From Planctomycetota bacterium (lineage in GTDB: Bacteria > Planctomycetota > UBA8108 > UBA1146): a stretch of 45,665 nt of DNA. Location: positions 1-45,665 of the forward strand of contig JBBWWC010000067.1 in the NCBI GenBank assembly GCA_050256555.1. The letters run 5' to 3'. The notes under the pieces are model-generated. The model saw nothing but the letters and a program-made list of their open reading frames with translations, had not been told where the DNA came from and ran no database searches. The position numbers were made by a program, and so were the translations under genes. Shown here one piece after another: positions 10,444 to 39,400 of the stretch; the stretch's first letter is position 1; every line of letters starts with the position of its first letter.

Positions 10444-11576
10444 AGCCGGACAGGACCTGGGCGACCATCGATCTCGATATCGTTGCCAGCAATCTCGAGC
10501 TTCTACGCTGTCTTTTACCGGAAAAGAAAATTCTCGGGGTGGTCAAAGCCGATGCGTATGGACACGGTTCGATTCCGATTTCCAGAAGACTTGCCGATGA
10601 AAACATCGATTACCTCGGTGTCGGCACATCACGAGAAGCTCTTGATCTCAGAAAATCCAACATCGACACCCCCATTCTCGTTCTCGGAGCGTTGATCGAC
10701 TCGGAGCTGGATTTACTCATCGATCAAAACATCTCTGTCACGATTCATTCTTCAAGCCGAATCAAACTGCTCGATGAAATCGCACAAAAACGAGGACAAA
10801 CTCTGGGAGTTCATCTACTCGTCGACACAGGGATGTCACGACTAGGGGTTAGCCCGGAACAGGCATTCATTCATGGCTCCGAAATTGATCGCTGTCCGGG
10901 ACTTCGCTTTGAAGGCATCGGGACTCATCTTCCAACACCTGGATCGACCCCGATCGTCGCACGCCAGCAAGAGATCCTTCATGACATCGTCAACAACCTC
11001 GAAAATGCCGGAATCGGCCCTCTTCTTGTACATATCGATGCCAGCGAAGCGGCCCTTCGTCATCCGGACCCCACTGCGGGAATGGTCCGCCTCGGAGGAG
11101 CTCTTTACGGATTTTTTCGCCACCTTCCGGCCGGAAAAGAACTGAAAGCGGTCCTGAACCTCCATAGCCAGGTGGTTTATCTGAGAGATCACCCACCCCA
11201 TCAACCTATAGGTTACGGTGGAACCTTCGTAACTGCTCGACAATCGCGGTTAGCAACGGTACCCATTGGGTATCATGACGGATTCTCTTCGGCCCTGTCG
11301 AATCGTGGACAAGTGATCATCCGTGGGCAACGTGTTCCGGTAGTCGGTCGTGTAACAATGGATTATTGCATGGTCGATGTTACTGACGTACCGGGAACCG
11401 TAGTCGGTGATGAAGTGACTCTGATCGGGACCGATGGAGATGCGACAATAACTGCAGAAGAAATCGCTGACTGGAGCGGAACCCTTCCTTACGAGGTGAC
11501 ATGCCTTCTCGGCAGCAGGGTTGAAAGACATCATGTGGGTAAGTTCACACAAGAACTTGAAATGGAAGGGAGGTAG
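10440..11576 (+). CDS. alr: Alanine racemase
   Basis: The PLP-Lys motif VVKADAYGHG and the C-terminal VGRVTMDY..VDVT are present. I prefer ATG 10440, which overlaps the tsaB TGA, over the track start at 10347. Confidence 0.9.
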   Translation: MKPDRTWATIDLDIVASNLELLRCLLPEKKILGVVKADAYGHGSIPISRRLADENIDYLGVGTSREALDLRKSNIDTPILVLGALIDSELDLLIDQNISVTIHSSSRIKLLDEIAQKRGQTLGVHLLVDTGMSRLGVSPEQAFIHGSEIDRCPGLRFEGIGTHLPTPGSTPIVARQQEILHDIVNNLENAGIGPLLVHIDASEAALRHPDPTAGMVRLGGALYGFFRHLPAGKELKAVLNLHSQVVYLRDHPPHQPIGYGGTFVTARQSRLATVPIGYHDGFSSALSNRGQVIIRGQRVPVVGRVTMDYCMVDVTDVPGTVVGDEVTLIGTDGDATITAEEIADWSGTLPYEVTCLLGSRVERHHVGKFTQELEMEGR

Positions 11577-19947: not shown

Positions 19948-20745
19948 CTATTCTGGCGGCTTCACACCCTCTTTTACCCCGTCGATCGCCAACTGGATGA
20001 CATAACTGACAAGTTGGTCGATCTCTTCAGGTTTAAGAACCTGAAGCGGCATTTTTGCCTGTGCGTTATCAAAAGTTGGCTGTTTCAAATAACCATGAAG
20101 CCACAGTGACATCTTTCTTAATAGATCCGATTCCTCCTCGATAACGTCAAATAGATCCTTCTTGGCCTCATAGCGATGCGGGTCTTCCTGACGCAACGTC
20201 TCCAGGTGTGCCGGGAATATCTCCATTCGACCGAGCCGACGTACCGCTACTTGAACCAGAGGTGGCTGCAAAATTGCGCCACGACCATCCACTTTGTGGC
20301 AAAGGATACAGCGTCTTTTCGCCACCAGGTGCCCGAGTGTCGCTCTACGCTGGAAAGCCGGGTCATTCAACAAAGAAAGATCCGAAACGCTCTGAGGAAG
20401 GCCCGAGGCTTCCTCAGAGGGCTTGGGGGTGGGTGCAGGAGCAGGGTCTGACTTCTCTTCTGTTTCAGGTTGATCAAAACTCGGTTCATTCGTGACAGAT
20501 ATGTCCTGCTTGACAACTGGCTCTGTTATTGGCGCAGAAGTTTTGACCGGGACCTCAATCGTCGTTGGTACAGAATTCCCAGCGCTCTTTTGAACAGACG
20601 TGGAGCTCTGCTCTGAATTGTTTGAATCAACACTACACGAGATGACCGAAACCAAGAGCAAGCCGATGAACACAGGCGATAAACTTCTAAAGAAAGACAT
20701 CGATGGGAGATCATCCACTAGCTTTATTTGATCGAACTCCTTCAT
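19948..20745 (-). CDS. Membrane-anchored/lipoprotein c-type cytochrome
   Basis: One heme-binding CXXCH motif (RRCILCHKVDG). The N-terminal signal has a lipobox-like LLLVSVISC, followed by a Pro/Ser/Thr-rich linker. ATG 20700 is an alternative start. Confidence 0.7.
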   Translation of the reverse strand: MKEFDQIKLVDDLPSMSFFRSLSPVFIGLLLVSVISCSVDSNNSEQSSTSVQKSAGNSVPTTIEVPVKTSAPITEPVVKQDISVTNEPSFDQPETEEKSDPAPAPTPKPSEEASGLPQSVSDLSLLNDPAFQRRATLGHLVAKRRCILCHKVDGRGAILQPPLVQVAVRRLGRMEIFPAHLETLRQEDPHRYEAKKDLFDVIEEESDLLRKMSLWLHGYLKQPTFDNAQAKMPLQVLKPEEIDQLVSYVIQLAIDGVKEGVKPPE

Positions 20746-20913
20746 GTACCGGATCCTCCATCTTGCCTGGCATGGTCACTGCCGCGGGTCACTTCCTCTG
20801 ACCGCTACTTCTGACCACTGAGCCTAGTAGCCTGACTGCTTGGTGCAAGCCCATCGTTACACTCTCCCCGAATCGACAACACCATGCTAGGATGCCGACA
20901 AGGAGGCATAACG

Positions 20914-21999
20914 ATGCATACCAGAGCCCAACTACTTTTTTGGGGATTCAGCTTCTTGCTGGTGTTTTTGAGCCCAATGAAGACACATGCTGGTGATCTT
21001 GATGCAAATATGAAGATCGTCGAAGAACTCGAAGAGCTCTTTGAAGTTGAGGTCAAAAAAAGCGACTCACGTTCCGCTGTAAAATTGTTTGAGCCACGGT
21101 TCGAGGCTCTGGCGAAGGATTTCGCCGGAACAGAGAGTGGACTTCGTGCTGAACTGTGGGTTCTACGAAACCACTGGTGGAAACGGGCTGCTGGAACCAT
21201 GGAAACCGCTTCCACACAACTAGCACTACGCCTCATCGATGAATATCCCGAATCAGCGCAACTGACCCGAATCGCAGAATTCCGTTATCTCTATGGCAAA
21301 GATGGTGTACTTCCTATGATGGATGCTCTCATCAAAGCGAGTCCACATGATCGGGTAGATGCATATGCACTTCACGCCAAGGCCTACAGTCTTGGTCGAA
21401 GCAAAGAAGAAACTGACATCGCCATAAAACGCCAGAGCCTCGAATTGCTGAGCCAACAATATGGAGACGTTGCCTTTCGCGATACCACATTTGGAGCCAT
21501 CGCAACGGCGATGCTGTCGCCACATCCAAAAGAAAATCTCGAAATCGGGAAAGTGGCTCCAGAAATCGAAGGCATGGATGTCGATGAAAACCCAATCAAG
21601 CTTTCAGACTATCGTGGAAAGATCGTGTTAATTGATTTCTGGGGAGACTGGTGAGGACCTTGCAGGGCGATGTACCCACACGAGCGGTCGCTCGTGGAGA
21701 AATACAATGAACATTTCGTCATCGTCGGAATCAACTCTGACCGCGGTCGTGATCGACTCAAGGAAGCGAAGGCACGCGAGAATATTTCATGGACTTCCTT
21801 TTATGATGGAGGGGGAACAGGAGGTCCAATTGCCACCCGCTGGGGTGTCACTGGCTGGCCAACCCTGTTCTTACTCGATAAAACTGGAACCATCCGGCAC
21901 CGCGGGTTACGAGGGGAAAAACTGGAAACTGCAATCCGGGAGCTCCTCAAGGAGATGGGAGTCGAGCTTCCACCGGAGCCAAGAAAAGAAGAACTCTAA
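20914..21999 (+). CDS. TlpA/ResA-like thioredoxin-fold thiol:disulfide oxidoreductase, probable selenoprotein (UGA 21652-21654 read as Sec)
   Basis: Track ORFs 20884..21654 and 21670..21999 are in the same frame. Read-through gives IVLIDFWGDW-U-GPCRAMYPHERSLVEKYNEHFVIVGINSD....W..TGWPTLFLLDKTG. The start ATG 20914 is preceded by AGGAGG (20901-20906) and followed by a signal peptide. Confidence 0.8.
21652..21699 (+). promoter_or_regulatory. In-frame UGA plus candidate bacterial SECIS hairpin
   Basis: UGA lies at 21652-21654. The hairpin CACGAGC-GGUC-GCUCGUG lies at 21679-21696, with a 7-bp stem and a G-containing apical loop, and starts about 25 nt after the UGA. Confidence 0.6.
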
Positions 22000-25890: not shown

Positions 25891-26556
25891 ATGCTTTCAC
25901 TTTTATTGACACTCGCAATGACAACCGTAGCACCAATGGCAGAGACCGTTCCCGCCACCGAAGCCTATCCTCTGGAAACCTGTGCTGTGGCCGGAAAGAA
26001 ACTCGGATCGATGGGGAAGCCCATAGATTACGTTCATGAGGGTCGCCAGGTACGTTTTTGTTGCAGAGGTTGCGTACCAAAGTTCAAGAGCAATCCAGAA
26101 CAGTACCTTGCCGCTGTTGATGCGAAAATCATCGAAACACAAAAGAAGAACTATCCCACCGATACCTGTCTTCTCTCGCAACAGAAGCTAGACAACACCG
26201 CAAAAGAAATCGTGATCAATAACCGACTCGTTCGCCTTTGCTGTGGCCGCTGCGTGAAAAAGATAAAGGCAGACCCGCAATCGATTTTCAAGAAGCTGGA
26301 CGCCGCCATCTTGAAAGCTCAAGCCAAAAGCTACCCTCTCACTACATGCGTGATTTCTGGTGAAGATCTCAACAGCATGGGCAAGCCGAAAGATGTGATC
26401 GTCGGTAACACATTGATCAAAGTTTGCTGTAAAGGATGCGTCTCCAAGGTTACTGCAGACCCAGCTAAGTTCATCGAGATGGTTCAATCGGCAAAAAAAT
26501 CTGGCGGCAATAAAGAAAAGAAAACAGCGCCAAAAAAAGCAGCCGGTAGCCAGTAG
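25891..26556 (+). CDS. Secreted protein with three tandem TRASH/YHS-like Cys-rich (putative metal-binding) modules and a Lys-rich tail
   Basis: A signal peptide is followed by three ~62-aa repeats of YP..TC-x(20-22)-CC..C..K....P. Examples are YPLETCAVAGKKLGSMGKPIDYVHEGRQVRFCCRGCVPKF and YPLTTCVISGEDLNSMGKPKDVIVGNTLIKVCCKGCVSKV. Confidence 0.7.
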   Translation: MLSLLLTLAMTTVAPMAETVPATEAYPLETCAVAGKKLGSMGKPIDYVHEGRQVRFCCRGCVPKFKSNPEQYLAAVDAKIIETQKKNYPTDTCLLSQQKLDNTAKEIVINNRLVRLCCGRCVKKIKADPQSIFKKLDAAILKAQAKSYPLTTCVISGEDLNSMGKPKDVIVGNTLIKVCCKGCVSKVTADPAKFIEMVQSAKKSGGNKEKKTAPKKAAGSQ

Positions 26557-27396: not shown

Positions 27397-27675
27397 TTAC
27401 GGGCAACCCCCGTAACTATCGCATCCCAATCCATCATCGGGAGTCATATCAACCCCGCACGCTGTGGGTCCTGGGGCCGAAGGAGGCGGGCCATTCTGGA
27501 ACTGATAGTTCAGAACAAAGATGATGTCGGAGATATCATGGCCTCCATCGTCATTTGAATCAGTTGCATCGGCGCAGCCAGAAGCCGGTCCTCCCAGCAT
27601 GAGTGTGTAAAGCATGTAGATCGCATCTGCGATGTCGACACTTCCATCGTCATTTGCATCGCCACGACGGAAACT
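27397..27675 (-). other. Dockerin-like double EF-hand module plus Cys-rich tail (C-terminus of giant protein 1)
   Basis: FRRGDANDDGSVDIADAIYMLYTLMLGG...DSNDDGGHDISDIIFVLNYQF...CGVDMTPDDGLGCDSYGGCP. Confidence 0.7.
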
Positions 27676-30600
27676 CGGCTCACACTCATCAGGCAATCCA
27701 TTTACATTTGCATCTGGACTGGTACCGGAAGCCATGTCGCATTCATCTGGGACACCGTTGCCATTGCAGTCTTCGCTACTACCGCTGCTCAGATCACAAA
27801 CATCGGGCGAACCGTTATCATTGCAATCTGTATCACACTCATCGGGAGTTCCATTGCCATCGCAATCCGCAGAAGACCCAGCAGCAATATCGCAGACGTC
27901 TGGAGATCCGTTACCATTACAATCCGCTTGCGGCACAACTATCGTCACCGTCTGCTCAACCGTGGTTGTGTTTCCATGATTATCCATGGCAGTCCACTGA
28001 ATCAACGTACTTCCGTGATCGAATGATCCACTGGCATTATCAGTTCCATTGAGATCATTGGACAAACTCACAACAGTGCAGTTATCAGAAGTTGTTGGCG
28101 TTGGAATATTCACCGTTGCTGTACATATGCCTTCGGGTGCGGGGATTGAAACATTTCCACTTGTTGCAATCGTCGGAGCCTCTTCATCGTCAACTGTTAC
28201 GCTAAACTGCGCAGTAGTTACGTTTCCGTTGGCATCCGATTGTGAATAATTCACCGTTGTTGTACCTACCGGGAAGAAATCTCCAGGTTGGGCACTGGCA
28301 ACGAGCTCACCGAGAGCGCAGTTATCACTCGCAGTAGGAGCATTCCAGTTCACATTTGCACCACACTCCCCAGGATCGGTCAATTGAGCGATGTCCTCAG
28401 GGACTCCCTCCAGTACCGGATCATGATTATCAATTACTGTCACGATGAACGTGTGCTGGCCAATATTGCCCTGACCATCGGCTAACGACAACGTCACAAA
28501 CGTGGTTCCAACGTTGAAGAACTGACCTGATTCATGACTGATCGTTAGATTTGTCGTTCCACAGTTGTCACTGACCTCGGCATCTGCCCATGTTGCCGTA
28601 GCTCCACAGGAATCCGGTCCCGAAACCAAAGTCATATCTTCAGGCGCTAGATCAAATTCAGGAGCCTGTGTATCACCAACCGTAACGGTGAAGGAGCTAG
28701 AAGCGGAGTTCCCAGCAGTATCTTCGACAGTGTAAGTCACTGTTGTATCTCCAACAGGGAAGAAATCACCGGAAGTGTGCGTTCTGGTAACAGCGCTATC
28801 TGGACAGTTATCAGAAGTCGAAGGCTCTGCCCAACTCATACTCGATCCACATTGATCCAGTTCGTTTCCAGCAGACATATCTTCGGGCATTCCAAATATC
28901 TGTGGCGCTTCATTGTCACTAACGGTGACTGAGAACTCGTGAGTATTTGCATTTCCATTAATATCCTGAAGAGTCATCAGGACTGCAGTTCTGCCCACCG
29001 GGAACTGCATACCAGAAGTGTAATTCGATCCCATGGAAAGAACGCCGCAATTGTCTGAGGTCGTAGGCGCATCCCAAATCGCTGTAGCAACGCACTGCCC
29101 TGGGTTCGTATCAAGCACCATGTCACCCGGGCTCGTCTCAAAGGTAGGAAGCTCGTCATCCTCGATCGTGATGACAAAGGCACTACTGGTTGAAAGCCCA
29201 TTCATGTCAGTAGCCGTGTATGTGACGGTGGTCGATCCGACCTGGAAGAAGCTAGAGGGCGGATGATTTGTAAAGAGACTCGAATTCGGGCAATTGTCAG
29301 TCGTGGTTGGAGGCGTCCAATCGATGACCGCACCACAAAAACCTCGATCGGCAGTCTGCGTCATCGAGCTTGGCATATCATGAATTTCCGGCAACTGGTC
29401 GTCAGTCACAGAAATTAAGAACTCATATGTTGTCGATTGTTGGTGAATATCAGTCAATGTCATCACGACCGTGGTATCTCCGAGCTGGAATGTGTCTCCT
29501 GATTGATGACTTGAAGTCATCGAAGGGGCTCCACAATTATCAGAAGTAACAGGCGCTTCCCAGGTCGCAACTGCACTACATTGATCGGTATCAGTGCTGA
29601 GACTTTGTGATGACGGAGCACTTTCAAACAATGGCGCTTCATCGTCGGTCACGGTGATCGTGAACGAACTCAGAACCACGTTGGTGCTGCTATCTTCTAA
29701 TGTGTAGGTCACTACCGTGTCCCCTACATCAAAGAAGTCACCAGGGGCATGCGAGCTCGACAGTATTTCACCTGGGCAATTATCAGAAGTCTGAGGTGGA
29801 TCCCATGTAACAGCAGCACCACAAACTCCCAGATCTGCTGTCTGGGTCTTTCTTCCAGGCATTTCAAGAAGTTGCGGATTCTCGATATCGTTGACCGTCA
29901 CCGAGAAGGTGTGCATCGATGAGTTTCCATGAACATCCGTCAGAGTCATCATTACTTCAGTGGTACCGGTTGAGAAGAAGTGTCCTGAAGGAAGGCTAGA
30001 ATCCAGAGAAAGAACACCGCAGTTATCACTAGTGGTTGGAGAATCCCAGCTAGCTACCGCACCACACTGTCCCCCATCGGAATCCAAGGTCATATCACCT
30101 GGAGCAGTAAGATATTCTGGATTTTGGTCATCGAGAACAGTTACAGTGAATGAAGCAGAAACACTATGGCCGTTGTCATCTGTACTCGTGTACGTGACAA
30201 CTGTATCGCCCATGGCAAACAAGCTATTGTTCGGAACATCGGGCCCAAACGAAAGAATACCGCAGTTATCTGAAGAGCTCGGTTCGGTCCAGGTCGCCGT
30301 TGCTCCACAAACATCCGCATCATTGGTGATGGTCATGGAATCGGGCATATCTGCGATAACTGGATCTTCATCATCCGTGATGGTGATCGTAAACGAAGCC
30401 GTTCCTTGGTTACCCGCATTATCTTCTGCAGAAAACACGACCTCTGTGATTCCTAACGGAAACTCAGAACCTGAAAGATGGGAAGACGTCACCAGCGGAG
30501 GCAAGCTACAGTTGTCAGATGCAGCAGGCGATATCCAGTGCATCGTCGTTGAACAGCTACCAAGATCCGTGGTTCCTGTCATGTCTTGTGGCATATTCAG

Positions 30601-32706
30601 GAATCCTGGTGGAGTAGAATCCACTGCCTGCGCATCTTCACATTCATCAGGGATTCCATTGGTATTGCAGTCGATCGAAGATCCTGCTGCCAACTGACAT
30701 TCATCGGGAACGCCGTTGCTATCGCAATCAACAGTTAAACCCTGAGAGATGTCACAGGAGTCAATTTGATCATTCCCATTACAGTCTAGTAACGGCGTGC
30801 TAACGAGTTCACAAGCGTCCGGAATACCATCTCCATCGCAATCGATATCGCCGCCAGAAATCTGACAAACATCTAATTGACCATTGCTGTCACAGTCCGG
30901 TGCGCCGGTATCCATCTCGCAATCATCGGCAAGACCATTGAGGTCACAGTCAGTTTCTAAACCATTTGCGATGTCGCAACTATCCGGAATGCTGTTCGAA
31001 TTGCAGTCGTTGGCTCCCGCAAGAAGATCACAATCATCTGGCGTGCCATTTTCATCGCAATCGGTTTCGCAATCGTCAGGAACCGAGTTGCCATTGCAAT
31101 CACCACTGCTTCCCGAAAGGATATCGCAGCTATCAGGAATTCCGTTGTTATTACAATCTGGAGTTCCTGTTGATAGATTACATGCATCCGGAATTCCATC
31201 TCCGTCGCAATCAAGAGAAGTGCCAGCGGAGAGATCGCAAGAATCTAGAATACCGTTTCCATTACAATCCGGATGGCTTCCGTTGTTAATTTCACAACGG
31301 TCGTCCTGGCCATTCCCATCACAATCGGGCATGTCTTCGTTAAAAGTCATGACTACCGCTGGGATTCCTCCAGACAGAACTCCACTCCAGTCCCCATTCG
31401 TGGCAACCTTGGAACCATGCCGATCTCCATTGAGAGTTGTCGGAGGACGTAGAGATTCTCGAAGTTCCCAACCTGCGCCATTTCGACGATACAGGTGTGC
31501 TAATCCTTGAGCAGAATCAACATTGGGTTCTCCCACGAGCAATTGATCATCGCAGAGAGCCAAAGCACTGGCATAACGATTCGTTTGAGGATGCGTACTC
31601 ATCGTCTTGGAAGCCTGCGCCCAGGTTGTCGCACTACGATCAAAGGTATAAATAGCACCAACGGTTCCTGCTCCTTGGGGGCCACCCAAAGAATCGGTGG
31701 CAGAAACAACCAGTGTTGATCCACTGGTGGCGCAATTACTGCCAAAGCCAAGATTTTGAATGCTATCGTTCGCAGCAAGACTTCCCTGGAAAATCCAGGA
31801 ACCACCCAAATCTAGGTACATGTGAACGCGACCTGATCCTGCCGCAAATCCAGGAGACCCGACAAATGCCCAGCCACCTTCGGCGAGAGCAACTGAGCTA
31901 CCTGTTTCCTCGCCACCCCCGACGGGAGTGGTTTCCGATATATGAGCAGTACGTTCCCATCCGGTCCCCGTTTGAGACCAAATTTCAGCATATCCCGTCG
32001 GCTGGATCTGATCTGGGTTATTTGGATTTTCAGGAATGAGCTGAGGTGCACCGATAATAATATCAGAGCCGAGTATTGCGACAGACGTTCCATACTCGTC
32101 ACTCGGTGACGGAGCTTGCGCAGTCAATTTTGCGACCTGCATCCAACCCAGTTCATTACGGACAAAAACATAGGCAGCACCACGAGTAACAGAGCTAAAC
32201 GGTGCTCCAACAACAGCCACATCCCCATCAATGGCAATCGAGGAACCAAAACCGTCTTCAGACTCATTGTCTGCCGGGGCAATAAAGCCATCGCCAATCC
32301 AGAGAGTCCCGTGACGTCGATAAACTTCTATCAATCTCGGCGAGCCCGGTTCAGCTGGATCATCAACTTCATCTGCACCCAAAGGCTCAAATGGATCCGC
32401 AGCAAGCAAAGTATCACCGGACATGGCAATTACACTGGAAAGGGAACCAAACAAGACACTCGGAAAAACGGGTTCGCATACATCCAGGATTCCATTGGAA
32501 TTACAGTCCGCTAACGGATTTTCAGCACTCTCACAATCATCCGGAGTTCCATTACTGTTGCAATCAGCACTGAATCCAGTTGCGATATCGCTGGAATCGG
32601 ATTGTCCATTGTTATTACAGTCGGTGATGGGATCCTCTTGAGCCAATAGCTCAGTCGGTCCGACGAAAACGGTGAAGGCCAATACAGCCCAGAAGAAAAT
32701 ACGCAT
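27397..32706 (-). CDS. Giant secreted surface protein 1: signal peptide, Cys-flanked Ca-loop repeats, FG-GAP-like propeller, 11 HYR units, dockerin-like C-terminus
   Basis: I prefer ATG 32706 (GGAGG 7 nt upstream, MRIFFWAVLAFTVFVGPTELLAQ) over the track start at 32784. Domain order was read directly from the translation; see the sub-features. Confidence 0.9.
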   Translation of the reverse strand: MRIFFWAVLAFTVFVGPTELLAQEDPITDCNNNGQSDSSDIATGFSADCNSNGTPDDCESAENPLADCNSNGILDVCEPVFPSVLFGSLSSVIAMSGDTLLAADPFEPLGADEVDDPAEPGSPRLIEVYRRHGTLWIGDGFIAPADNESEDGFGSSIAIDGDVAVVGAPFSSVTRGAAYVFVRNELGWMQVAKLTAQAPSPSDEYGTSVAILGSDIIIGAPQLIPENPNNPDQIQPTGYAEIWSQTGTGWERTAHISETTPVGGGEETGSSVALAEGGWAFVGSPGFAAGSGRVHMYLDLGGSWIFQGSLAANDSIQNLGFGSNCATSGSTLVVSATDSLGGPQGAGTVGAIYTFDRSATTWAQASKTMSTHPQTNRYASALALCDDQLLVGEPNVDSAQGLAHLYRRNGAGWELRESLRPPTTLNGDRHGSKVATNGDWSGVLSGGIPAVVMTFNEDMPDCDGNGQDDRCEINNGSHPDCNGNGILDSCDLSAGTSLDCDGDGIPDACNLSTGTPDCNNNGIPDSCDILSGSSGDCNGNSVPDDCETDCDENGTPDDCDLLAGANDCNSNSIPDSCDIANGLETDCDLNGLADDCEMDTGAPDCDSNGQLDVCQISGGDIDCDGDGIPDACELVSTPLLDCNGNDQIDSCDISQGLTVDCDSNGVPDECQLAAGSSIDCNTNGIPDECEDAQAVDSTPPGFLNMPQDMTGTTDLGSCSTTMHWISPAASDNCSLPPLVTSSHLSGSEFPLGITEVVFSAEDNAGNQGTASFTITITDDEDPVIADMPDSMTITNDADVCGATATWTEPSSSDNCGILSFGPDVPNNSLFAMGDTVVTYTSTDDNGHSVSASFTVTVLDDQNPEYLTAPGDMTLDSDGGQCGAVASWDSPTTSDNCGVLSLDSSLPSGHFFSTGTTEVMMTLTDVHGNSSMHTFSVTVNDIENPQLLEMPGRKTQTADLGVCGAAVTWDPPQTSDNCPGEILSSSHAPGDFFDVGDTVVTYTLEDSSTNVVLSSFTITVTDDEAPLFESAPSSQSLSTDTDQCSAVATWEAPVTSDNCGAPSMTSSHQSGDTFQLGDTTVVMTLTDIHQQSTTYEFLISVTDDQLPEIHDMPSSMTQTADRGFCGAVIDWTPPTTTDNCPNSSLFTNHPPSSFFQVGSTTVTYTATDMNGLSTSSAFVITIEDDELPTFETSPGDMVLDTNPGQCVATAIWDAPTTSDNCGVLSMGSNYTSGMQFPVGRTAVLMTLQDINGNANTHEFSVTVSDNEAPQIFGMPEDMSAGNELDQCGSSMSWAEPSTSDNCPDSAVTRTHTSGDFFPVGDTTVTYTVEDTAGNSASSSFTVTVGDTQAPEFDLAPEDMTLVSGPDSCGATATWADAEVSDNCGTTNLTISHESGQFFNVGTTFVTLSLADGQGNIGQHTFIVTVIDNHDPVLEGVPEDIAQLTDPGECGANVNWNAPTASDNCALGELVASAQPGDFFPVGTTTVNYSQSDANGNVTTAQFSVTVDDEEAPTIATSGNVSIPAPEGICTATVNIPTPTTSDNCTVVSLSNDLNGTDNASGSFDHGSTLIQWTAMDNHGNTTTVEQTVTIVVPQADCNGNGSPDVCDIAAGSSADCDGNGTPDECDTDCNDNGSPDVCDLSSGSSEDCNGNGVPDECDMASGTSPDANVNGLPDECEPSFRRGDANDDGSVDIADAIYMLYTLMLGGPASGCADATDSNDDGGHDISDIIFVLNYQFQNGPPPSAPGPTACGVDMTPDDGLGCDSYGGCP
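27935..30625 (-). repeat. Array of 11 HYR (hyalin repeat) Ig-like units, ~81-83 aa each
   Basis: The recurring pattern is ..C(G/S)A.(V/A).W..P..SDNC....(L/S)....SG..F..G.T.V......D..GN.....F.(V/I)TV.D...P. Boundaries are approximate. Confidence 0.85.
30640..31335 (-). repeat. 13 tandem ~20-aa Cys-flanked loop repeats, D-C-(D/N)-x-(D/N)-G-x-P-D-x-C-(D/E)
   Basis: Examples are DCDGNGQDDRCE, DCNGNGILDSCD, DCDGDGIPDACN ... DCNTNGIPDECE. There are 3 more units at ~32480-32640 and 5 more at ~27676-27935. Confidence 0.85.
31340..32470 (-). other. FG-GAP / integrin-alpha-like beta-propeller region
   Basis: The repeated pattern is FG.S(I/V)A(I/L).GD..(V/I)(V/I)GAP......G(A/R)(A/V)Y(V/I)F. Examples are DGFGSSIAIDGDVAVVGAPFSSVTRGAAYVF, YGTSVAILGSDIIIGAP and GSSVALAEGGWAFVGSPGFAAGSGRVHMY. 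Confidence 0.65.
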
Positions 32707-33135
32707 GGGATTTCCTCCCACTCCCTTTCTGATCGGAATATTCCGATCCAGGGGCATTGCCGAACGCTCGGCATTTCTTTCCACGACGAAAGAGATAACC
32801 CCAAACCCAATTCAAGAATGAAAAGTCGACAAACCTCAGAAACCTCTCAGAAGGAAAAATAGTGTCCTTCAGAGCCAGGGATCCTTGTCAACTCTCCCGG
32901 CGATAATCAATACATTTTCAAACTAACTGCTTTTATACAAGAGCATATGTATTAACAAAAGCAGAAAACCGGGCTCCACGGGAAGATAAGTAGGTTTTTA
33001 TCCATCTATTTAAGAAGTAGTTACAACATTTTGGGATAAATGGGAGAAAAGGAAGTAAATGGTAAGCGAGAAGTAACATAAGCAAACTAATCGATAACAT
33101 ACGACATAACAGAAGACTCGATGGCAAATGAAACT
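32707..33135 (-). promoter_or_regulatory. AT-rich intergenic region, presumed promoter and 5-prime UTR of giant gene 1
   Basis: This is the only long non-coding gap in the giant-gene block and is visibly A/T-rich around 32,930-33,120. A TTGACA lies on the minus strand at 32886-32891, but I found no well-spaced -10 element. No specific promoter is called. Confidence 0.3.
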
Positions 33136-33190: not shown

Positions 33191-33465
33191 TTATGGGCAG
33201 GCGTTATAAAGAGCGCAGCCCAGTCCATCGCCATCGGTCGGGTCAACTCCACAGTTATCGAATGGAGCAGGCGGCGGATTCGTACCATTGAACTGGAAAC
33301 CAAGAATCGTAATGACATCGGACACATCGATACTACCGTCGTCATTTGAATCGGCAGCATCGTCGCAGGTAGAATCAACTCCACCGGCAAACAGGTTCAC
33401 CAGCAAGAAGACGCCATCAGCAATATTCACAATGCCATCGCCGTTACCGTCACCCCGACGGAAGT
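33191..33465 (-). other. Dockerin-like double EF-hand module plus Cys-rich tail (C-terminus of giant protein 2)
   Basis: FRRGDGNGDGIVNIADGVFLLVNLFAGG...DSNDDGSIDVSDVITILGFQF...CGVDPTDGDGLGCALYNACP. It is collinear with the giant protein 1 C-terminus. Confidence 0.7.
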
Positions 33466-36400
33466 TCACCTGGCATGCGTCCGGAATCCCATCACCATCG
33501 AAGTCAGTCGCAGTTCCACTGATGAGATCACATGAATCTGGCACACCATTACCATTGCAGTCTTCTGCGAATCCTTCTGCGATCTCACATGAATCTGGTA
33601 TGTTGTTCTGGTTGCAATCGGAAAGTGATCCATCGATCAGCTCGCAAGTATCAGGGATTGAATTCCCATCGCAATCGGCAGCGGAACCATTACTGATCTC
33701 GCAGCTGTCAGGAATACCAGTAGCATTACAATCTTGTTCGACGCCGAGCAAAATTTCACAGCTATCAATATCTCCATCAAGATCGCAGTCAGCCCAAGCT
33801 CCGGAAGCTATGTCACAAGAATCTGGTAGTCCGTTATCGTTGCAATCGGAAGCTGTACCACTAAAGACTTCACAACTATCCGGTACTCCAGTCCCATCGC
33901 AATCATCTTCAACTCCGCTGGAGAGATCACATCCATCTGGGATTCCATTGTCATTACAATCGGCAACCTGTCCGTTTCCAATTTCGCAGTTATCGAGAAT
34001 GCCATTGCCGTCGCAATCAGCAAGACCTGCGGCGATGTCGCAATCGTCGGGCAATCCATTGCTGTTACAATCAGGCTCTGCTCCACTTGCGACTTCGCAA
34101 CTATCAGGGATTCCCGTCCCATTGCAGTCCAGAGCATTGCCACTCAGTAGATCGCAGGAATCCGGAATACCATTAGTATTACAATCAGGTGTTGCTCCGC
34201 TAGAAATCTCACAACTATCCGGCGTTCCATTATTGTCGCAGTCCAGTGCTGTACCGGAGTCAAGGTCACAGACATCCAGCGTTCCATTAAAGTTACAATC
34301 GGAAGAAACGCCCGTAGCTAGATCGCAAGCGTCCAGAACCTGATTGTCGTTACAGTCCGTATCCTGGCCCGCAACAAGATCGCAACTATCAAGTATTCCA
34401 TTTGCGTTACAGTCAGATGCCGTACCGGCATCGAGATCACATACGTCGAGACTGCCATTAAGATCACAATCAAGCGAAGCGTTATTAGAGATTTGACAAC
34501 TATCTGGAACACCATCAAGATCGCAGTCGGCCTCAATTCCTGAAGCAATATCACAGATATCAGGCTGGCTATTCCCATTGCAATCAAGTGCAAGTCCGTT
34601 GGAAATTTCGCAGGAATCAGGAACGCCATTCAGATCGCAGTCATTTTCTGTGCCGCTAGAAATTTCGCAACCATCAATGATCCCATCTGAGTCGCAATCT
34701 ACTTCTGTACCACTCGAGATCTCACAACCGTCTGGCATTCCATCTTCATCGCAATCGAACGCGGATCCCTGCTCGATTTCACAGCTGTTAGGAATCCCAT
34801 CTCCGTCGCAATCGGGCTGACAATCATCAGGTATTCCATCAAGATTACAGTCTGTGCTGGTACCAGTAGAAATATCGCAAACATCGGGATTGTTATTCCC
34901 ATTGCAGTCCGGGGAATCAATCAAAACAGTTACGATTCCAGCTGAAAAGGAAACGTTTCCATTGATATCCGTCGCCGTCCAGTTGATCAAAGTGTTGCCA
35001 CGTGTGTAGTAACCCGAAGCATTTTCCGTTCCGTTGAAATCGTTGACAACGACGACATCTCCACAAGCATCTAAAGTTTCAAGTGCAGGGACATCTACGT
35101 ACGATCCACATTCTCCCACTGGCGCTGTAACCGTCACTGGTAATGGAGGAACAATATTTGGGCTTTGGTTATCTTGAACTGTCACTGTGAATGTATCCAA
35201 AACGCTATTACCACTGGTGTCTGTTGCCACGTAGGTAACGATCGTCGATCCAACATTAAAGAAGGATCCAGGAGAGTGGCTGGATTCAAAGCTAGCAAGC
35301 CCGCATCCATCAACCCCAGTGGGGTCTAGCCAGCTAACACTTGTACCGCATAAACCAGAATCTGCGGAGTAGGTGAGATCATTCGGCATGCCAACGATCA
35401 CAGGGTATTCATCATCAAGCACTGTAATCTGGAATGAAGCAGTTACTTGGTTATTGGAAGAATCCGTTGCAACAACCAAAACCGTTGTTGTTCCAACTGA
35501 ATATTCCATACCAGAGTAGAAACTCGTGACTAGTTGTGAAACTTCGCAGTTATCAGTCGCTGTAGGTAAATTCCAGTTCACTGCTGCAGCACAATGTCCA
35601 GGAGGTGCATTGACGACCTGATTCAATGGGAGCGAAGTAATCACAGGAAGTTCCGTGTCATTGACTGTGACAACAAATGCATATGTTGATGCATTACCTG
35701 ACAAATCATTTGCAAAGTATTCGACAGTGGTTTGTCCAACTGGGAAGAAATCTCCAGAAGTATGAGTTGAACTGAACGTTGGAGTGTCGCAAGCATCTTC
35801 AATGATTGGATCATCCCAGGTAACCAAAGTTCCGCACTCTGAAACTGTATTTTCCACATCGATGGTGACAGGCAATCCAACGATTGAAGGGCCTTCGACA
35901 TCTGTAACAATCACATCGAAGAGAGATTCGATCTGGTTTCCTGAAGCATCCACCGTCAGGTAAATAACTGTTGTCGTGCCAACAGGGAAGAAATGTCCGC
36001 TTTCATGACTGCGCGTAACTTCCGCAACTTCGCAATTGTCAAAGCTGGAAGGTTCATCCCAAGTTGCGGATGCGCCACATAGTCCCGGTTCAGAACCCAA
36101 CTGGATTGAAACAGGGAGACCATGCAACACAGGATCTTCATTGTCTTCAACGGTTACGGTGAAGGAAGCACTGGAGACATTGCCATGAATATCAGTAGCC
36201 GTGTAAGTAACCGTTGTGGTACCAAGATCAAAGAGGCTGCTGTTCTCGATATCTGATGTAAGATTTTCGATACCACAGTTATCCGAAGCGGAAGGCGAAG
36301 CCCAGGCGACATCAGCCCGGCAATCTCCGAAATCATTCGAAACAACCATATCAGCTGGCATATTAAAGATCTGAGGAAGTTCATGGTCGTTAACTCTGAC

Positions 36401-39400
36401 AATGAATGAAACGGTGGTTGCGATATTTGCTGTATCAGATGCACTGTATGTAACAATCGTATCCCCAACATTGAACACATCTCCAGGAACATGAGTGGAC
36501 ATCGTATTCAAGACGGAGCAATTGTCGGTGTAAGTTGGCAACTCCCAACTCACGACAGCAGTACATTCACCTGGATCAGAGTCCAGCTCAACGATTTCAG
36601 GCAATCCAATAATTTCAGGATCTTCTGAATCAATCACAGTAACAGTGAAAGTTACTTCGCTAGTATTACCACTTGAATCGGTAGCGATGTAAGTAATAGG
36701 TGTTGTCCCCACAGCAAACAAATCGCCAGAGCCGTGATCCGAATTAAGAACTTCAACTGTGCAGTTATCAGAAGCAATCGGTTCTTCCCATGAAACCAAT
36801 GCCCCGCAAACAGAAAGGTCATTCTCAACTGATATATCAAGAGGGACTGAATTCATGATTGGAATTTCTTCGTCAACAACAGTTATCGAGAACACGTGAC
36901 TCGTTGAGTTTCCATTCACATCGGTAACTGTGATGGTGACAAATGTTGTTCCAACAGGGAAACGATCGCCATTAACATGGCTGCTCTCGATGGTATCAAC
37001 GGAACAATTATCAGAAGCGACCACGTCATCCCATTCGATCATGGCATCACAATGGCCAGCTTCGCTCAATACATCCAGATTAAGGGAAGGATTGAGGATT
37101 TCCGGATTTTCGAGATCCAGTACCGTTACCTCAAACCCTGAAATCAAAGTGTTCCCGTTCACATCGATAGCAGTGTAAGTAACGGTTGTAATTCCTGGCG
37201 TCATGAAAGTACCTGAGGAAATGTCAGAAGTGAGACTTTCGACCCCACAATTATCAACAGCAAATGGTGTTTCCCATGTAACTAAGGCACCGCAAATCCC
37301 AGGATCGGTCATTATCGAGAAGCTAGAAGGGAGACCAATTATCGATGGGATCTGGATATCAACCACTGTGACCAGGAAAGACTCTTCAATTTGATTCCCG
37401 GAAGCATCCACAGCATTTAGAACAACCGTCGTATCTCCAGATGGGAAAGTATCACCACTGTGATGGCTACTGGTAAAGGAGACCAGTTCACAATTATCGA
37501 CTGCATTTGGTTCGGCCCATTCAGCGATAGTCGTGCAACTGTTATTCGCTGTGTTCACGATCACTCTGTCTGGAACATTTGAAATCACAGGAGACTCATT
37601 ATCTTCCACAGTCACAGTGAACTGTGAAGTAGTGATGAGGCCAGCTGAATCTTCAGTCGTGTAGGTTACAACAGTCATCCCCAGATCAAAAACATGTCCG
37701 TTCTGGATGTCCGATTGAAGGTTGAGAACGGTATCGTCACAATTATCAGTGGCAGTTGGTTCTACCCATTCGTGCACAGCCGAACAGGTTCCCGAAGTTA
37801 CCGGGACTATCGCATCAGCTGGCATTCCAACTATGACAGGAACCTCTTCATCTAAAACTTCAACCGTAAAGGTTGCTGTAGTCGACAGTCCTGCATTATC
37901 AATCGCTGTGTACATAACAGTCGTGGTACCAACATTGAAGAAATCTCCAGGCTGCTGAGTGCTATCAACACTTTCAATCTGGCAATTGTCGGTGACTGTT
38001 GGCGGAATCCAATCAAATGTAGAACCGCAAAGACCAACCTGTGCTGATATTGTCGTATTTTGCGGGACATCTGTAATGGTCGGAGCTTCGACATCAGTGA
38101 TCGTGACCACGAATGACTCATTGATTGGATTACCGCTAGAATCTTCGACAGAATAATTCACAACAGTACTACCCACTGCGAATAACGAACCATTCTCGAT
38201 ATCAGAACCAAGACCAATAGCCTGGCAATTATCCGAAGCCGTGGGCTCGACCCAATTCACGAACGCCCCACAAAGGCCTGATTCAGAACTTTCTTGAATA
38301 TCAGCCGGCAATCCAATGATCACAGGGAGCTCGTTATCAATCACGGTCACACTGAATGAACTTGTCGAAGTATTACCATTAACATCCATTACGTCTATTT
38401 CGACAAACGTAGTACCCAGATCAAACGCATCCCCAGGCTGATGACTGGAATTATGTTCCAGCACACTACAGTTGTCAGTACTCGACTCGGGTATCCAATC
38501 GACCACAGAAGTACAAGATCCAAGATCAGTATCTATCGTTATGTCTGCTGAAATTCCGACTATCTGCGGTGCTTCATCATCAACAACGATGATCTTGAAC
38601 TGTTGCTGGAATGTATTGCCTGAAAGATCAACAGCAATAAATTCAACATTAGTTTCACCGATCGGGAACAAGTCACCCGAATTATGCGACTGTGTAAATG
38701 ACGATATCGAGCAGTTATCAGCGACAGAAGGATTGCTCCATTCATGAACTGCCCCGCATACACCAATGTCATTTGAAATCGAAATGTCGGAAGGAAGATC
38801 AGTAATTGTTGGCAACTCATTGTCAACAACCGTGACCACGAAACTTGCGCTAGTTTCATTACCAACAGTATCGATGCCCGTGTAGATCACAGTCGAGTCG
38901 CCTACCGGGAAGAATGCTCCGGGTTGATGTGTACTGATCGAGAGGTCGACGATGCAATTGTCTGTAATCGTCGGCGGTGTCCAATCAAAGCTGGATCCAC
39001 AAAGGCCAGACTCGACGTTGATAACAACATCTGTGGGCATATCCGCAATGGTCGGAGCTTCATCTTCTGATACGAATACCAGGAACGAATCCGTATGTGA
39101 ATTTCCACTTGGATCTTCAACAGAATATGTAACCAATGTCGGACCAACGGAGAAGAAAGAACCATTAGCAATATCCGATGTAAATCCAATCGCCTCGCAA
39201 TTGTCGAACGGAGTCGGCTCTACCCATGTAATCTCAGCTCCACAAGATCCGATATCGGTTCCTATGCTGATGTCCTGAGTCATGTTTAAAAGCTGTGGCG
39301 ATTCGTTATCAACAACCGTCACATTGAAGGAAGCCGTACTGACATTTCCGCTAGGATCTGCAACTTCGATTTCAACAAGTGTTGTTCCCAGATCGAAAAC

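Follow-up and report, generated by a model that had tools for sequence, protein, structure and literature searches.

The locus raises a simple question: does the TGA at 21652-21654 end one gene and separate it from a second, or is it read as an amino acid within a single gene? In the window, by which we mean the whole stretch of DNA analysed (45,665 nucleotides, the entire contig), two open reading frames, 20884..21654 and 21670..21999, lie in a common frame (offset 786 = 3 x 262) and are separated only by this TGA and five sense codons, GGA CCT TGC AGG GCG. Reading through gives ...LIDFWGDW-[TGA]-GPCRAMYPHERSLV... An earlier note, made from the sequence alone, had described this arrangement of the frames, which we confirmed, and had proposed that the stop codon falls exactly on the nucleophilic Cys of a W-C-G-P-C redox motif. 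From the evidence below we consider it highly probable that 20914-21999 is one gene, encoding a presumably exported TlpA/ResA-like thiol-disulfide oxidoreductase with a selenocysteine (Sec) nucleophile and the motif W-U-G-P-C. Judged by sequence comparison, the UGA almost certainly codes for the active-site selenocysteine. The features of the gene are as follows.

20900..20906, plus strand: Shine-Dalgarno-like AAGGAGG, read from the sequence, 7 nt 5' of ATG 20914.
20914..21999, plus strand: single coding sequence of a TlpA-like candidate selenoprotein, 361 codons with one internal TGA, the putative Sec being codon 247.
20914..20991, plus strand: probable Sec-type signal peptide, MHTRAQLLFWGFSFLLVFLSPMKTHA, predicted to be cut before GD, judged by eye.
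21001..21528, plus strand: family-specific N-terminal all-alpha helical-repeat domain, about aa 30-205, from the AlphaFold model.
21544..21921, plus strand: thioredoxin-fold (TlpA/ResA/DsbE-like) domain, aa 211-336, from Pfam and the nearest structures.
21652..21654, plus strand: in-frame UGA, putative Sec codon 247, at the nucleophilic Cys position of W-C-x-P-C, from homologue comparison.
21661..21663, plus strand: TGC (codon 250) for the resolving Cys of U-G-P-C, a residue shared by all 84 homologues (TGC in 72, TGT in 12).

ATG 20914 is the likely start, given the Shine-Dalgarno-like sequence in front of it, and the public gene calls of homologues begin at the equivalent Met. Translation from there to the stop TAA 21997-21999 yields the 361-aa joined product that the note had given. 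To the eye, its N-terminus shows a positively charged start followed by a hydrophobic stretch, with T-H-A just ahead of the presumed cut, and residues 1-28 have pLDDT values below 50 in the AlphaFold model. Structure models were available for the N-terminal fragment and for one full-length Cys homologue. The N-terminal domain was modelled as nine helices with pLDDT above 90; it has no Pfam match, and comparison with PDB folds returned nothing significant (best E = 0.04, to generic TPR-like/solenoid repeats). The thioredoxin-fold domain is matched by Pfam AhpC-TSA (PF00578; 1.9e-17, 63.8 bits against a cut-off of 26), Redoxin (PF08534; 3.3e-15, 56.6 bits against 26.6) and Thioredoxin_8 (PF13905; 7.9e-15, 55.4 bits against 27), and the matches cover aa 211-336 and run across the TGA. 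The closest solved structures are DsbE, ResA, TlpA and CcmG, whose WCxPC aligns to W-[TGA]-GPC, in agreement with the proposed position of the stop at the nucleophile. In the cis-Pro loop W-P-T, P316 and T317 are invariant in the alignment of full-length homologues.

Neither fragment makes a complete thioredoxin fold by itself: the first stops after beta-1, and the second lacks both beta-1 and the nucleophile. The note had likewise held that neither makes sense alone. This bears on the reading in which the TGA is a true stop, the helical N-terminal domain stands alone and a separate C-terminal protein starts at ATG 21670. Public records do annotate the N-terminal fragment as a protein, and ATG 21670 is conserved in 83 of 84 homologues. 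However, the Met it encodes is equally conserved within full-length Cys homologues (CRAMYPHE) and is therefore an internal residue, and no Shine-Dalgarno-like sequence was found upstream of this ATG. The codons between the TGA and ATG 21670 also speak against a stop. Codon choice varies at the G position (GGC 38, GGA 14, GGG 8, GGT 3) and the P position (CCT 44, CCC 24, CCG 10, CCA 6) as well as at the Cys codon listed above, and the amino acids G-P-C-R-A stay fixed. These five codons are therefore translated, and the segment can be translated only if the UGA is decoded. Two separate proteins divided by a genuine stop are thus, in our judgement, scarcely credible.

The TGA itself is conserved. 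In genomic DNA, TGA fills the column of codon 247 in 83 of 84 distinct homologues, and these 83 all stay in frame afterwards; the proportion is not an unbiased frequency, as the scan used the peptide pattern ...DFWGDW, a motif enriched in Sec forms. These 83 genes come from metagenome-assembled genomes, mostly of Planctomycetota but also of Gemmatimonadota and Verrucomicrobiota, and after the TGA all of them read U-[G/P]-P-C-R-A-M-Y-P-H-E-R-S-L-V. The earlier note had raised the possibility that homologues genuinely terminate here with a separate gene downstream; they do not, since all 83 continue in frame. It had also proposed aligning the joined protein to homologues, and this alignment showed Cys to be invariant at the TGA column in 11 full-length homologues aligned over their whole length. 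Cys was likewise found at this column in most of the roughly 90 Cys-type protein matches. Among the best 120 protein matches, 24, the product of the window included, are fragments of about 240 aa or longer proteins ending in ...FWG.W, and the 17 homologous fragments that were read completely share 42-88% identity with the window fragment.

The same data bear on whether an ordinary TlpA gene of the Cys type might here have acquired a nonsense mutation, have decayed to a pseudogene or have been misread in sequencing or assembly. The codon is one base away from TGC or TGT, Cys-type paralogues are common, and W, R or S stands at this column in a few homologues (P0047, P0079, P0040 and P0048), indicating that point changes do occur there. 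Nevertheless, an accident would have had to produce the same TGA in 83 distinct genes from independent assemblies, every one of which has kept an unbroken downstream frame under purifying selection. Synteny is conserved in loci L001-L015, where the syntenic orthologues keep the TGA even though identity between the proteins encoded around them has fallen to 43-92%; the TGA has therefore been retained over a long divergence. A lesion or error is effectively refuted by these observations, and we assign it a negligible probability.

If the UGA is decoded, decoding must be local: TGA is the ordinary stop of 12 of the 24 genes in the window, and hence the code has not been reassigned. Reassignment of UGA to Trp or Gly was rejected on this ground. 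The note had pointed to a 7-bp hairpin with a GGUC apical loop about 25 nt after the UGA, at the position where bacterial SECIS elements are found. We recovered this hairpin, with its start corrected to 24 nt, together with a smaller one in front of it.

21665..21677, plus strand: predicted small upstream hairpin formed by GGG (21665-21667) and CCC (21675-21677) with a 7-nt loop, found independently by RNAalifold.
21679..21696, plus strand: SECIS-type hairpin CACGAGC-GGUC-GCUCGUG, a perfect 7-bp stem with a GGUC loop, from ViennaRNA, RNAalifold and comparison.

The published bacterial SECIS model (PMC13188914) calls for a loop of 3-9 nt, a stem of 4-16 bp, a spacing of 16-37 nt and a minimum free energy of at most -7.5 kcal/mol, with G as the first or second loop nucleotide and, as a rule, G or U after it. 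The hairpin at 21679-21696 agrees with every one of these rules. Its loop has 4 nt and its stem 7 bp in the window and 6 bp in all homologues; both the G and the U of the loop are nearly invariant over the 83 sequences; and the free energy is -10.5 kcal/mol for the 18-mer hairpin alone and -7.9 for the 16-mer core. The apical loop lies 31 nt past the UGA (21655-21685), which places the element within the bacterial range, as had been claimed, and this spacing is the same in all 83 genes because their alignment is free of gaps. The hairpin is the stable element of the ViennaRNA centroid and the only perfect hairpin in the window with a stem of at least 6 bp and a GGTC loop. With a z-score of only -0.54 for the 72-nt fold, it is the comparative data, and not thermodynamics alone, that show the hairpin to exceed chance.

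These comparative data show that the hairpin is under selection at the nucleotide level, and much more strongly in UGA-containing genes. Its codons CGG, TCG and CTC are used in 80/80, 80/80 and 78/80 Sec genes, against background frequencies of 0.20, 0.22 and 0.38 across those genes. Of 80 Sec genes, 78 retain the 12-nt core, as against only 5 of the 13 Cys genes that also encode HERSLV (Fisher p = 5e-7); the core occurs 90 times in 1.3 Mb of fetched DNA, always within this redoxin family. RNAalifold recovered the hairpin unaided. Compensatory changes in the stem comprise C-G to U-A twice, which replaces Val by Met, and C-G to G-C once; this covariation was reached by 0 of 500 shuffles, and it rests on few events, most stem pairs being invariant. 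In the mini-hairpin, the middle pair changes from G-C to C-G twice and to U-G once. Rfam gave no SECIS match for the whole window at gathering score, and at E up to 10 over 21500-21900 it returned no SECIS match but two chance miRNA matches. The hairpin lies inside the coding sequence and also encodes H-E-R-S-L-V.

A hairpin of this kind could in principle be a generic stimulator, and not a SelB-binding SECIS, in a local read-through that inserts a standard amino acid such as Trp or Cys by a near-cognate or suppressor tRNA. Five Cys homologues retain the hairpin intact, so it is not strictly exclusive to UGA genes and may have a role independent of Sec. The machinery for Sec insertion was also not found in the DNA at hand: neither selA, selB, selD nor tRNA-Sec lies within the 45.7-kb contig, ARAGORN found no tRNA-Sec in the window or in any of the 80 related loci, and a tblastn search of the window and 1.2 Mb of related loci, using the E. 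coli SelA, SelB and SelD proteins as queries, yielded no more than two weak matches, both to the SelB G domain. The one selB-like match examined is translation initiation factor IF-2. Against this reading, the UGA coincides exactly with the catalytic nucleophile, a position at which no residue but Cys or Sec supports the chemistry; TGA is the most frequent genuine stop codon of the window; the hairpin agrees with the SelB-type model and has a GGUC loop as in E. coli fdhF; and thioredoxin-fold UxxC selenoproteins are well documented (PMC1088965, PMC13188914). We therefore regard insertion of a standard amino acid as very unlikely and retain selenocysteine as the preferred reading, on the assumption that the source genome is competent for Sec. 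Complete Sec machinery has been reported in Planctomycetes (PMC4807772).

In the selenocysteine reading, we infer SelB binding, the actual incorporation of selenium, export and the identity of the substrate as follows. When the ribosome arrives at UGA 21652-21654, SelB, the Sec-specific elongation factor, carrying Sec-tRNA(Sec), would bind the hairpin at 21679-21696 within the coding sequence, and Sec would be inserted in place of termination. The product would consist of a signal peptide, the helical-repeat N-terminal domain and the thioredoxin fold, and would serve as a selenol/thiol reductant of the periplasm. By analogy with TlpA, ResA and CcmG, it may act on the c-type cytochrome lipoprotein encoded by the conserved neighbouring gene or on proteins that assemble metal centres.

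A scan of the window and the related loci for in-frame TGA beside Cys, Ser or Thr motifs yielded 1808 candidates, mostly spurious, and a simpler scan of the window for other selenoprotein genes gave no second convincing case. Promoter and terminator scans added nothing.

The hairpin resembles the SECIS of E. coli fdhF, which likewise lies within its gene, 3' of the UGA, and has the same GGUC apical loop. In fdhF the G and U of the loop are the SelB contacts. The fdhF loop starts 18 nt after the UGA as opposed to 31 nt here, its stem has a bulged U and reaches back to the UGA whereas ours is a perfect 6-7 bp, and in our gene a separate 3-bp mini-hairpin lies in front of the SECIS-type hairpin.

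The protein belongs to a type of selenoprotein that is already known, and the note had rightly claimed no new mechanism (PMC1088965, PMC4807772, PMC13188914): the UxxC kind has been catalogued since 2005, and split candidates from a planctomycete were described in 2016. The "thiol-disulfide isomerase-like protein" selenoproteins (UxxC, cd02966 TlpA-like) were first predicted in the Sargasso Sea metagenome (Zhang, Fomenko & Gladyshev 2005, PMC1088965), and the same family is listed in a 2026 review (PMC13188914). By description, it resembles our gene in its TlpA-like thioredoxin fold, in having Sec where CxxC has its first Cys, in the wide occurrence of Cys homologues and in coming from marine metagenomes. 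In planctomycete P1 from Porphyra, split "thiol-disulfide isomerase-like thioredoxin" selenoprotein candidates were each annotated as two adjacent genes due to an in-frame UGA, and their closest NCBI match has Cys (Kim et al. 2016, PMC4807772, S9 Table). These candidates, again compared by description, have the phylum and the functional annotation in common with the gene at 20914-21999. For these two candidates that study reported no SECIS with bSECISearch (PMC4807772), whereas our gene contains a hairpin that is strongly conserved and agrees with the SECIS model.

TlpA (Bradyrhizobium, 1JFU), ResA (Bacillus, 1ST9/4NMU) and CcmG/DsbE (1KNG, 3GL3) are periplasmic thiol-disulfide reductases of cytochrome and copper-centre maturation. 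The predicted product is like them in its fold, the position of the W-C-x-P-C motif, the cis-Pro 'WPT' loop and the adjoining c-type cytochrome gene, and may also share their extracytoplasmic location; it differs in the putative Sec for Cys and the extra helical-repeat N-terminal domain. It is a superfamily relative and not an orthologue, as its scores fall far below the NCBIfam equivalog cut-offs (TlpA NF047696, 45.4 against 230 bits; ResA NF002854, 69.9 against 170; DsbE TIGR00385, 44.4 against 123). NCBIfam NF041054, the curated "ResA-like WAxxUGC motif-containing protein" family, is similar in being a Sec-containing ResA-like thioredoxin fold; membership was ruled out by a score of 28.5 bits against a cut-off of 300 and by the motif, which is WGDWUGPC and not WAxxUGC.

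Reading the gene as a whole corrects the annotation of this contig, and dozens of public records call the gene a truncated "hypothetical protein" or "redoxin domain-containing protein". It would mark a deep-sea-type Planctomycetota lineage as a user of selenocysteine, which matters for trace-element ecology and for estimating the size of selenoproteomes; our understanding of Sec decoding is unchanged. The near-invariant 18-nt hairpin is a simple and specific signature that could seed a family model, since the NCBIfam and Rfam models all miss both the gene and its SECIS.

One further feature of the locus is the divergent neighbour of the redoxin gene.

19948..20745, minus strand: mono-haem cytochrome c domain protein with a lipoprotein-like N-terminus, from Pfam PF00034 and a CILCH haem motif.

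We tentatively suggest, as a possibility that we hold to be rather less than even, that the genes form a coherent, widespread and unmodelled selenoprotein subfamily, defined by the helical-repeat domain, the TlpA-like fold, FWGDW-U-[GP]PCRAMYPHERSLV and an almost invariant two-hairpin SECIS, with at least 83 genes in Planctomycetota, Gemmatimonadota and Verrucomicrobiota, and possibly paired functionally with the lipoprotein c-type cytochrome. If this were true, the pairing would represent a selenium-dependent step of periplasmic cytochrome or metal-centre maturation that annotation pipelines have missed. A functional pairing of the redoxin with its neighbour may be reflected in gene order, as the cytochrome gene is adjacent and divergent in 18 related loci, three of them outside the syntenic clade.

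The ORFs called at 20884..21654 and 21670..21999 lie in one frame with TGA 21652-21654 and five sense codons between them, as the earlier note had proposed, and the sequence bears out its read-through product (...KIVLIDFWGDW-[TGA]-GPCRAMYPHERSLVEKY...), with the frame open to TAA 21997-21999. The true start is most likely ATG 20914, because AAGGAGG (20900-20906) sits 7 nt upstream and the public gene calls of homologues begin equivalently. Counted from this ATG, the product is 361 residues long, and residue 247 is the recoded one. Of the window's 24 genes, 12 stop at TGA; the recoding is therefore local, within a standard genetic code.

For domain searches, Cys was put at the TGA position of the joined protein. 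Residues 211-336, which span the TGA, are matched by Pfam AhpC-TSA, Redoxin and Thioredoxin_8, and the closest solved structures are the thiol-disulfide oxidoreductases DsbE, ResA, TlpA and CcmG, whose WCxPC aligns with W-[TGA]-GPC. No NCBIfam model matched at its cut-off: the TlpA, ResA and DsbE equivalogs scored far under threshold, and the curated family of ResA-like WAxxUGC selenoproteins gave 28.5 bits against a cut-off of 300. Residues 1-26, judged by eye, look like a signal peptide and have low confidence in the structure model, in which residues ~30-205 are confidently predicted as an all-alpha helical-repeat domain (no Pfam match and no significant PDB fold match). In the model of a full-length Cys homologue, the same helical domain leads into a complete thioredoxin fold.

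Among the best 120 protein matches, 24 (the window's own product included) end ...FWG.W, exactly at the TGA column; of the homologous fragments, 17 were read over their whole length and are 42-88% identical to the window fragment. The other matches of the 120 are mostly full-length with Cys at this column, and C247 is invariant in an alignment of 11 full-length homologues. Scanning representative genomes with two peptide patterns yielded 80 loci (genomic loci with homologues are labelled L), with 84 distinct genes in all; in their DNA the codon is TGA in 83 cases and TGC in the remaining one. This frequency is biased, since one pattern demanded the Sec-enriched motif ...DFWGDW, yet the 83 are independent instances. 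All 84 genes continue in frame with [G/P]-P-C-R-A-M-Y-P-H-E-R-S-L-V. Over the five codons from the TGA to the next ATG, the amino acids are kept while all synonymous codons are used, the hallmark of read-through translation at the TGA. The window is syntenic with loci L001-L015, and the shared order is:

DUF3500, formiminotransferase-cyclodeaminase, hypothetical, ACT, cytochrome c, gene under study, glycosyltransferase, patatin, endonuclease/phosphatase

Neighbouring proteins at these loci are 43-92% identical, so the TGA has outlasted substantial divergence, and neither a pseudogene nor an assembly error can explain it.

The hairpin described earlier at 21679-21696, with 7 bp and a GGUC loop, was confirmed as a perfect CACGAGC-GGUC-GCUCGUG and is the stable element of the predicted fold. 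At z = -0.54 the energy of the 72-nt fold is ordinary, and evidence of function must therefore come from comparison. In the homologues with TGA (Sec genes), the codons of Y-P-H-E-R-S-L are near-invariant in nucleotides:

TAC, 83/83 in Sec genes
CAC, 78/82 in Sec genes
GAG, 84/84 in Sec genes
CGG, 82/83 in Sec genes
TCG, 82/82 in Sec genes
CTC, 81/83 in Sec genes

Background use in the same genes is 0.20 for CGG, 0.22 for TCG and 0.38 for CTC, and equally conserved residues elsewhere use their codons freely (for example, Gly at -3 is GGC in 24, GGT in 22, GGG in 21 and GGA in 17). Unguided RNAalifold on the 83-sequence alignment predicted two hairpins:

21665-21667 with 21675-21677, small hairpin, GGG/CCC
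21680-21695, main hairpin, ACGAGC/GCUCGU around GGUC, with the outer C-G pair additional in 52 sequences

Pair counting gave 90% of cells paired, a share that falls to 27-46% with slid partners. Four pairs are altered on both sides, and none of 500 shuffles reached any observed measure. Compensatory changes from C-G to U-A occur in L025 and L041, at the cost of Val to Met, and L021 shows one from C-G to G-C. Likewise, a G-C pair of the small hairpin has changed to C-G (L047, both copies) and to U-G (L068), at the cost of Pro to Ala. The majority of stem pairs show no variation, and therefore the frozen synonymous sites are a stronger argument than covariation. The small hairpin (21665-21677; 3 bp, 7-nt loop), between the UGA and the main hairpin, is itself nearly invariant.

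The first three Cys homologues with HERSLV, the peptide encoded by the hairpin region, carry the identical 18 nt (L083, L084, L085), and so the hairpin might have had nothing to do with Sec. When metagenomes were scanned for Cys-type genes with HERSLV, whatever its codons, 13 distinct genes came up, and in 8 of them the stem or loop is broken by synonymous changes (CGC, AGG or CGA; TCC; TTG, CTG or CTT). The 12-nt core is thus kept in 5/13 Cys genes versus 78/80 Sec genes (Fisher p = 5e-7), which answers that doubt. The hairpin is also absent from the sole Cys paralogue found beside a Sec copy, L060:10625 (HEQEV). Selection on the hairpin at the nucleotide level thus goes together with the UGA. 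An intact core, GAGCGGTCGCTC, is carried by these Cys genes (TGC/TGT):

L083:3688
L084:1366
L085:1446
L092:1392
L095, minus strand, match 10893-10939

Most simply, these five are probably recent Sec-to-Cys conversions with a 'fossil' SECIS; alternatively, the hairpin may have arisen before the UGA. Among thiol oxidoreductases, Sec has been documented to give way to Cys and Cys to Sec (PMC1794560).

The bacterial SECIS model has an apical loop of 3-9 nt, an upper stem of 4-16 bp, a G within the first two loop positions, a UGA-to-loop distance of 16-37 nt and an MFE <= -7.5 kcal/mol (PMC13188914). With 4 nt, 7 bp, GG, 31 nt and -10.5 kcal/mol, the hairpin agrees with the model on every value, as its position had first suggested. 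The E. coli fdhF SECIS (from the K-12 genome) has the same GGUC loop, but it begins 18 nt past the UGA rather than 31 nt. Rfam models gave no match to the hairpin.

Homologues of selA, selB and selD were not found in the window or in 1.2 Mb of related loci. A tRNA search of the window found none, and none of the 8 tRNAs that ARAGORN detected in the 1.2 Mb was flagged as tRNA-Sec. The window, an entire contig, holds housekeeping and surface proteins only. From the gene itself we infer that the source organism is Sec-competent, which is supported by the complete Sec machinery reported for several Planctomycetes (PMC4807772).

The call as a selenoprotein is correct and of use for annotation, and will not surprise a specialist. 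As first suggested, the class is known: UxxC thioredoxin-fold selenoproteins have been on record since 2005, when a UxxC "thiol-disulfide isomerase-like protein" family was predicted (PMC1088965), and a 2026 review places this family under cd02966 (PMC13188914). Two split candidates from a planctomycete, annotated "thiol-disulfide isomerase-like thioredoxin", appear in Kim et al. (2016; PMC4807772), whose tool found no SECIS for them, whereas the SECIS here is near-invariant. What is added here is the breadth of the subfamily, this SECIS and the absence of a curated model.

By homology, the protein is likely an exported reductant with a selenol nucleophile. Its divergent neighbour is:

19948-20745, minus strand, mono-haem cytochrome c domain protein (CILCH motif, lipoprotein-like N-terminus)

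This gene adjoins the redoxin gene divergently in 18 loci, three of them (L016, L017, L043) outside the syntenic clade, which suggests either apocytochrome reduction, as for ResA/CcmG, or metal-centre assembly, as for TlpA; the cytochrome c domain protein may be the redox client. A small protein four genes downstream of the redoxin gene (25891-26556, plus strand; synteny kept in L001-L014) has a sub-threshold YHS/TRASH (metal-binding) match, which may hint at a connection with copper like that of TlpA.

Two tandem TGA copies occur in L036 (601, 1567), L047 (9387, 10553), L053 (9263, 10895), L055 (10583, 11941), L064 (10550, 11184) and L071 (10550, 11140). The protein match P0014, as called, has a Cys-type redoxin domain (FWGFWCPIC) and then a second helical domain ending ...FWGFW, and reads as a Cys copy followed by a truncated Sec copy in the same frame. 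In P0047, P0048, P0079 and P0040 the Sec/Cys column is occupied by Trp, Ser or Arg (FWGHW-W-GPC, FWGHW-S-GPC, FWGDW-R-GPC). The Trp and Arg codons (TGG, CGA, AGA) are one base away from TGA, and inactivation of the copies or errors in sequencing may account for these four. Asp two residues ahead of the UGA (FWGDW-U) is almost always present in Sec forms, and Cys forms have mostly His, Thr, Phe, Asn or Ser there; this association, inflated in part by search-pattern bias, could reflect tuning of the selenol active site or a codon-context effect on UGA decoding.

L008 (QNYK01000007.1) carries the label Bacillota, but its synteny with the Planctomycetota loci is complete, at 50-80% identity, and L016 (JAFMMO010000030.1) is labelled Proteobacteria; both labels are probably wrong. 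L001 and L002 (PAIH01000044.1, PAIH01000004.1) are contigs of a single assembled genome and hold 20-kb copies of the locus that are essentially identical, likely a redundant assembly or a within-bin strain duplication. Finally, two giant ORFs on the minus strand, 33191-45586 (4131 aa) and 27397-32784 (1795 aa), together make up 39% of the contig and consist mostly of HYR domain repeats, 42 copies in the longer and 10 in the shorter, which also has FG-GAP repeats. Both products are presumably adhesin-like proteins of the cell surface.
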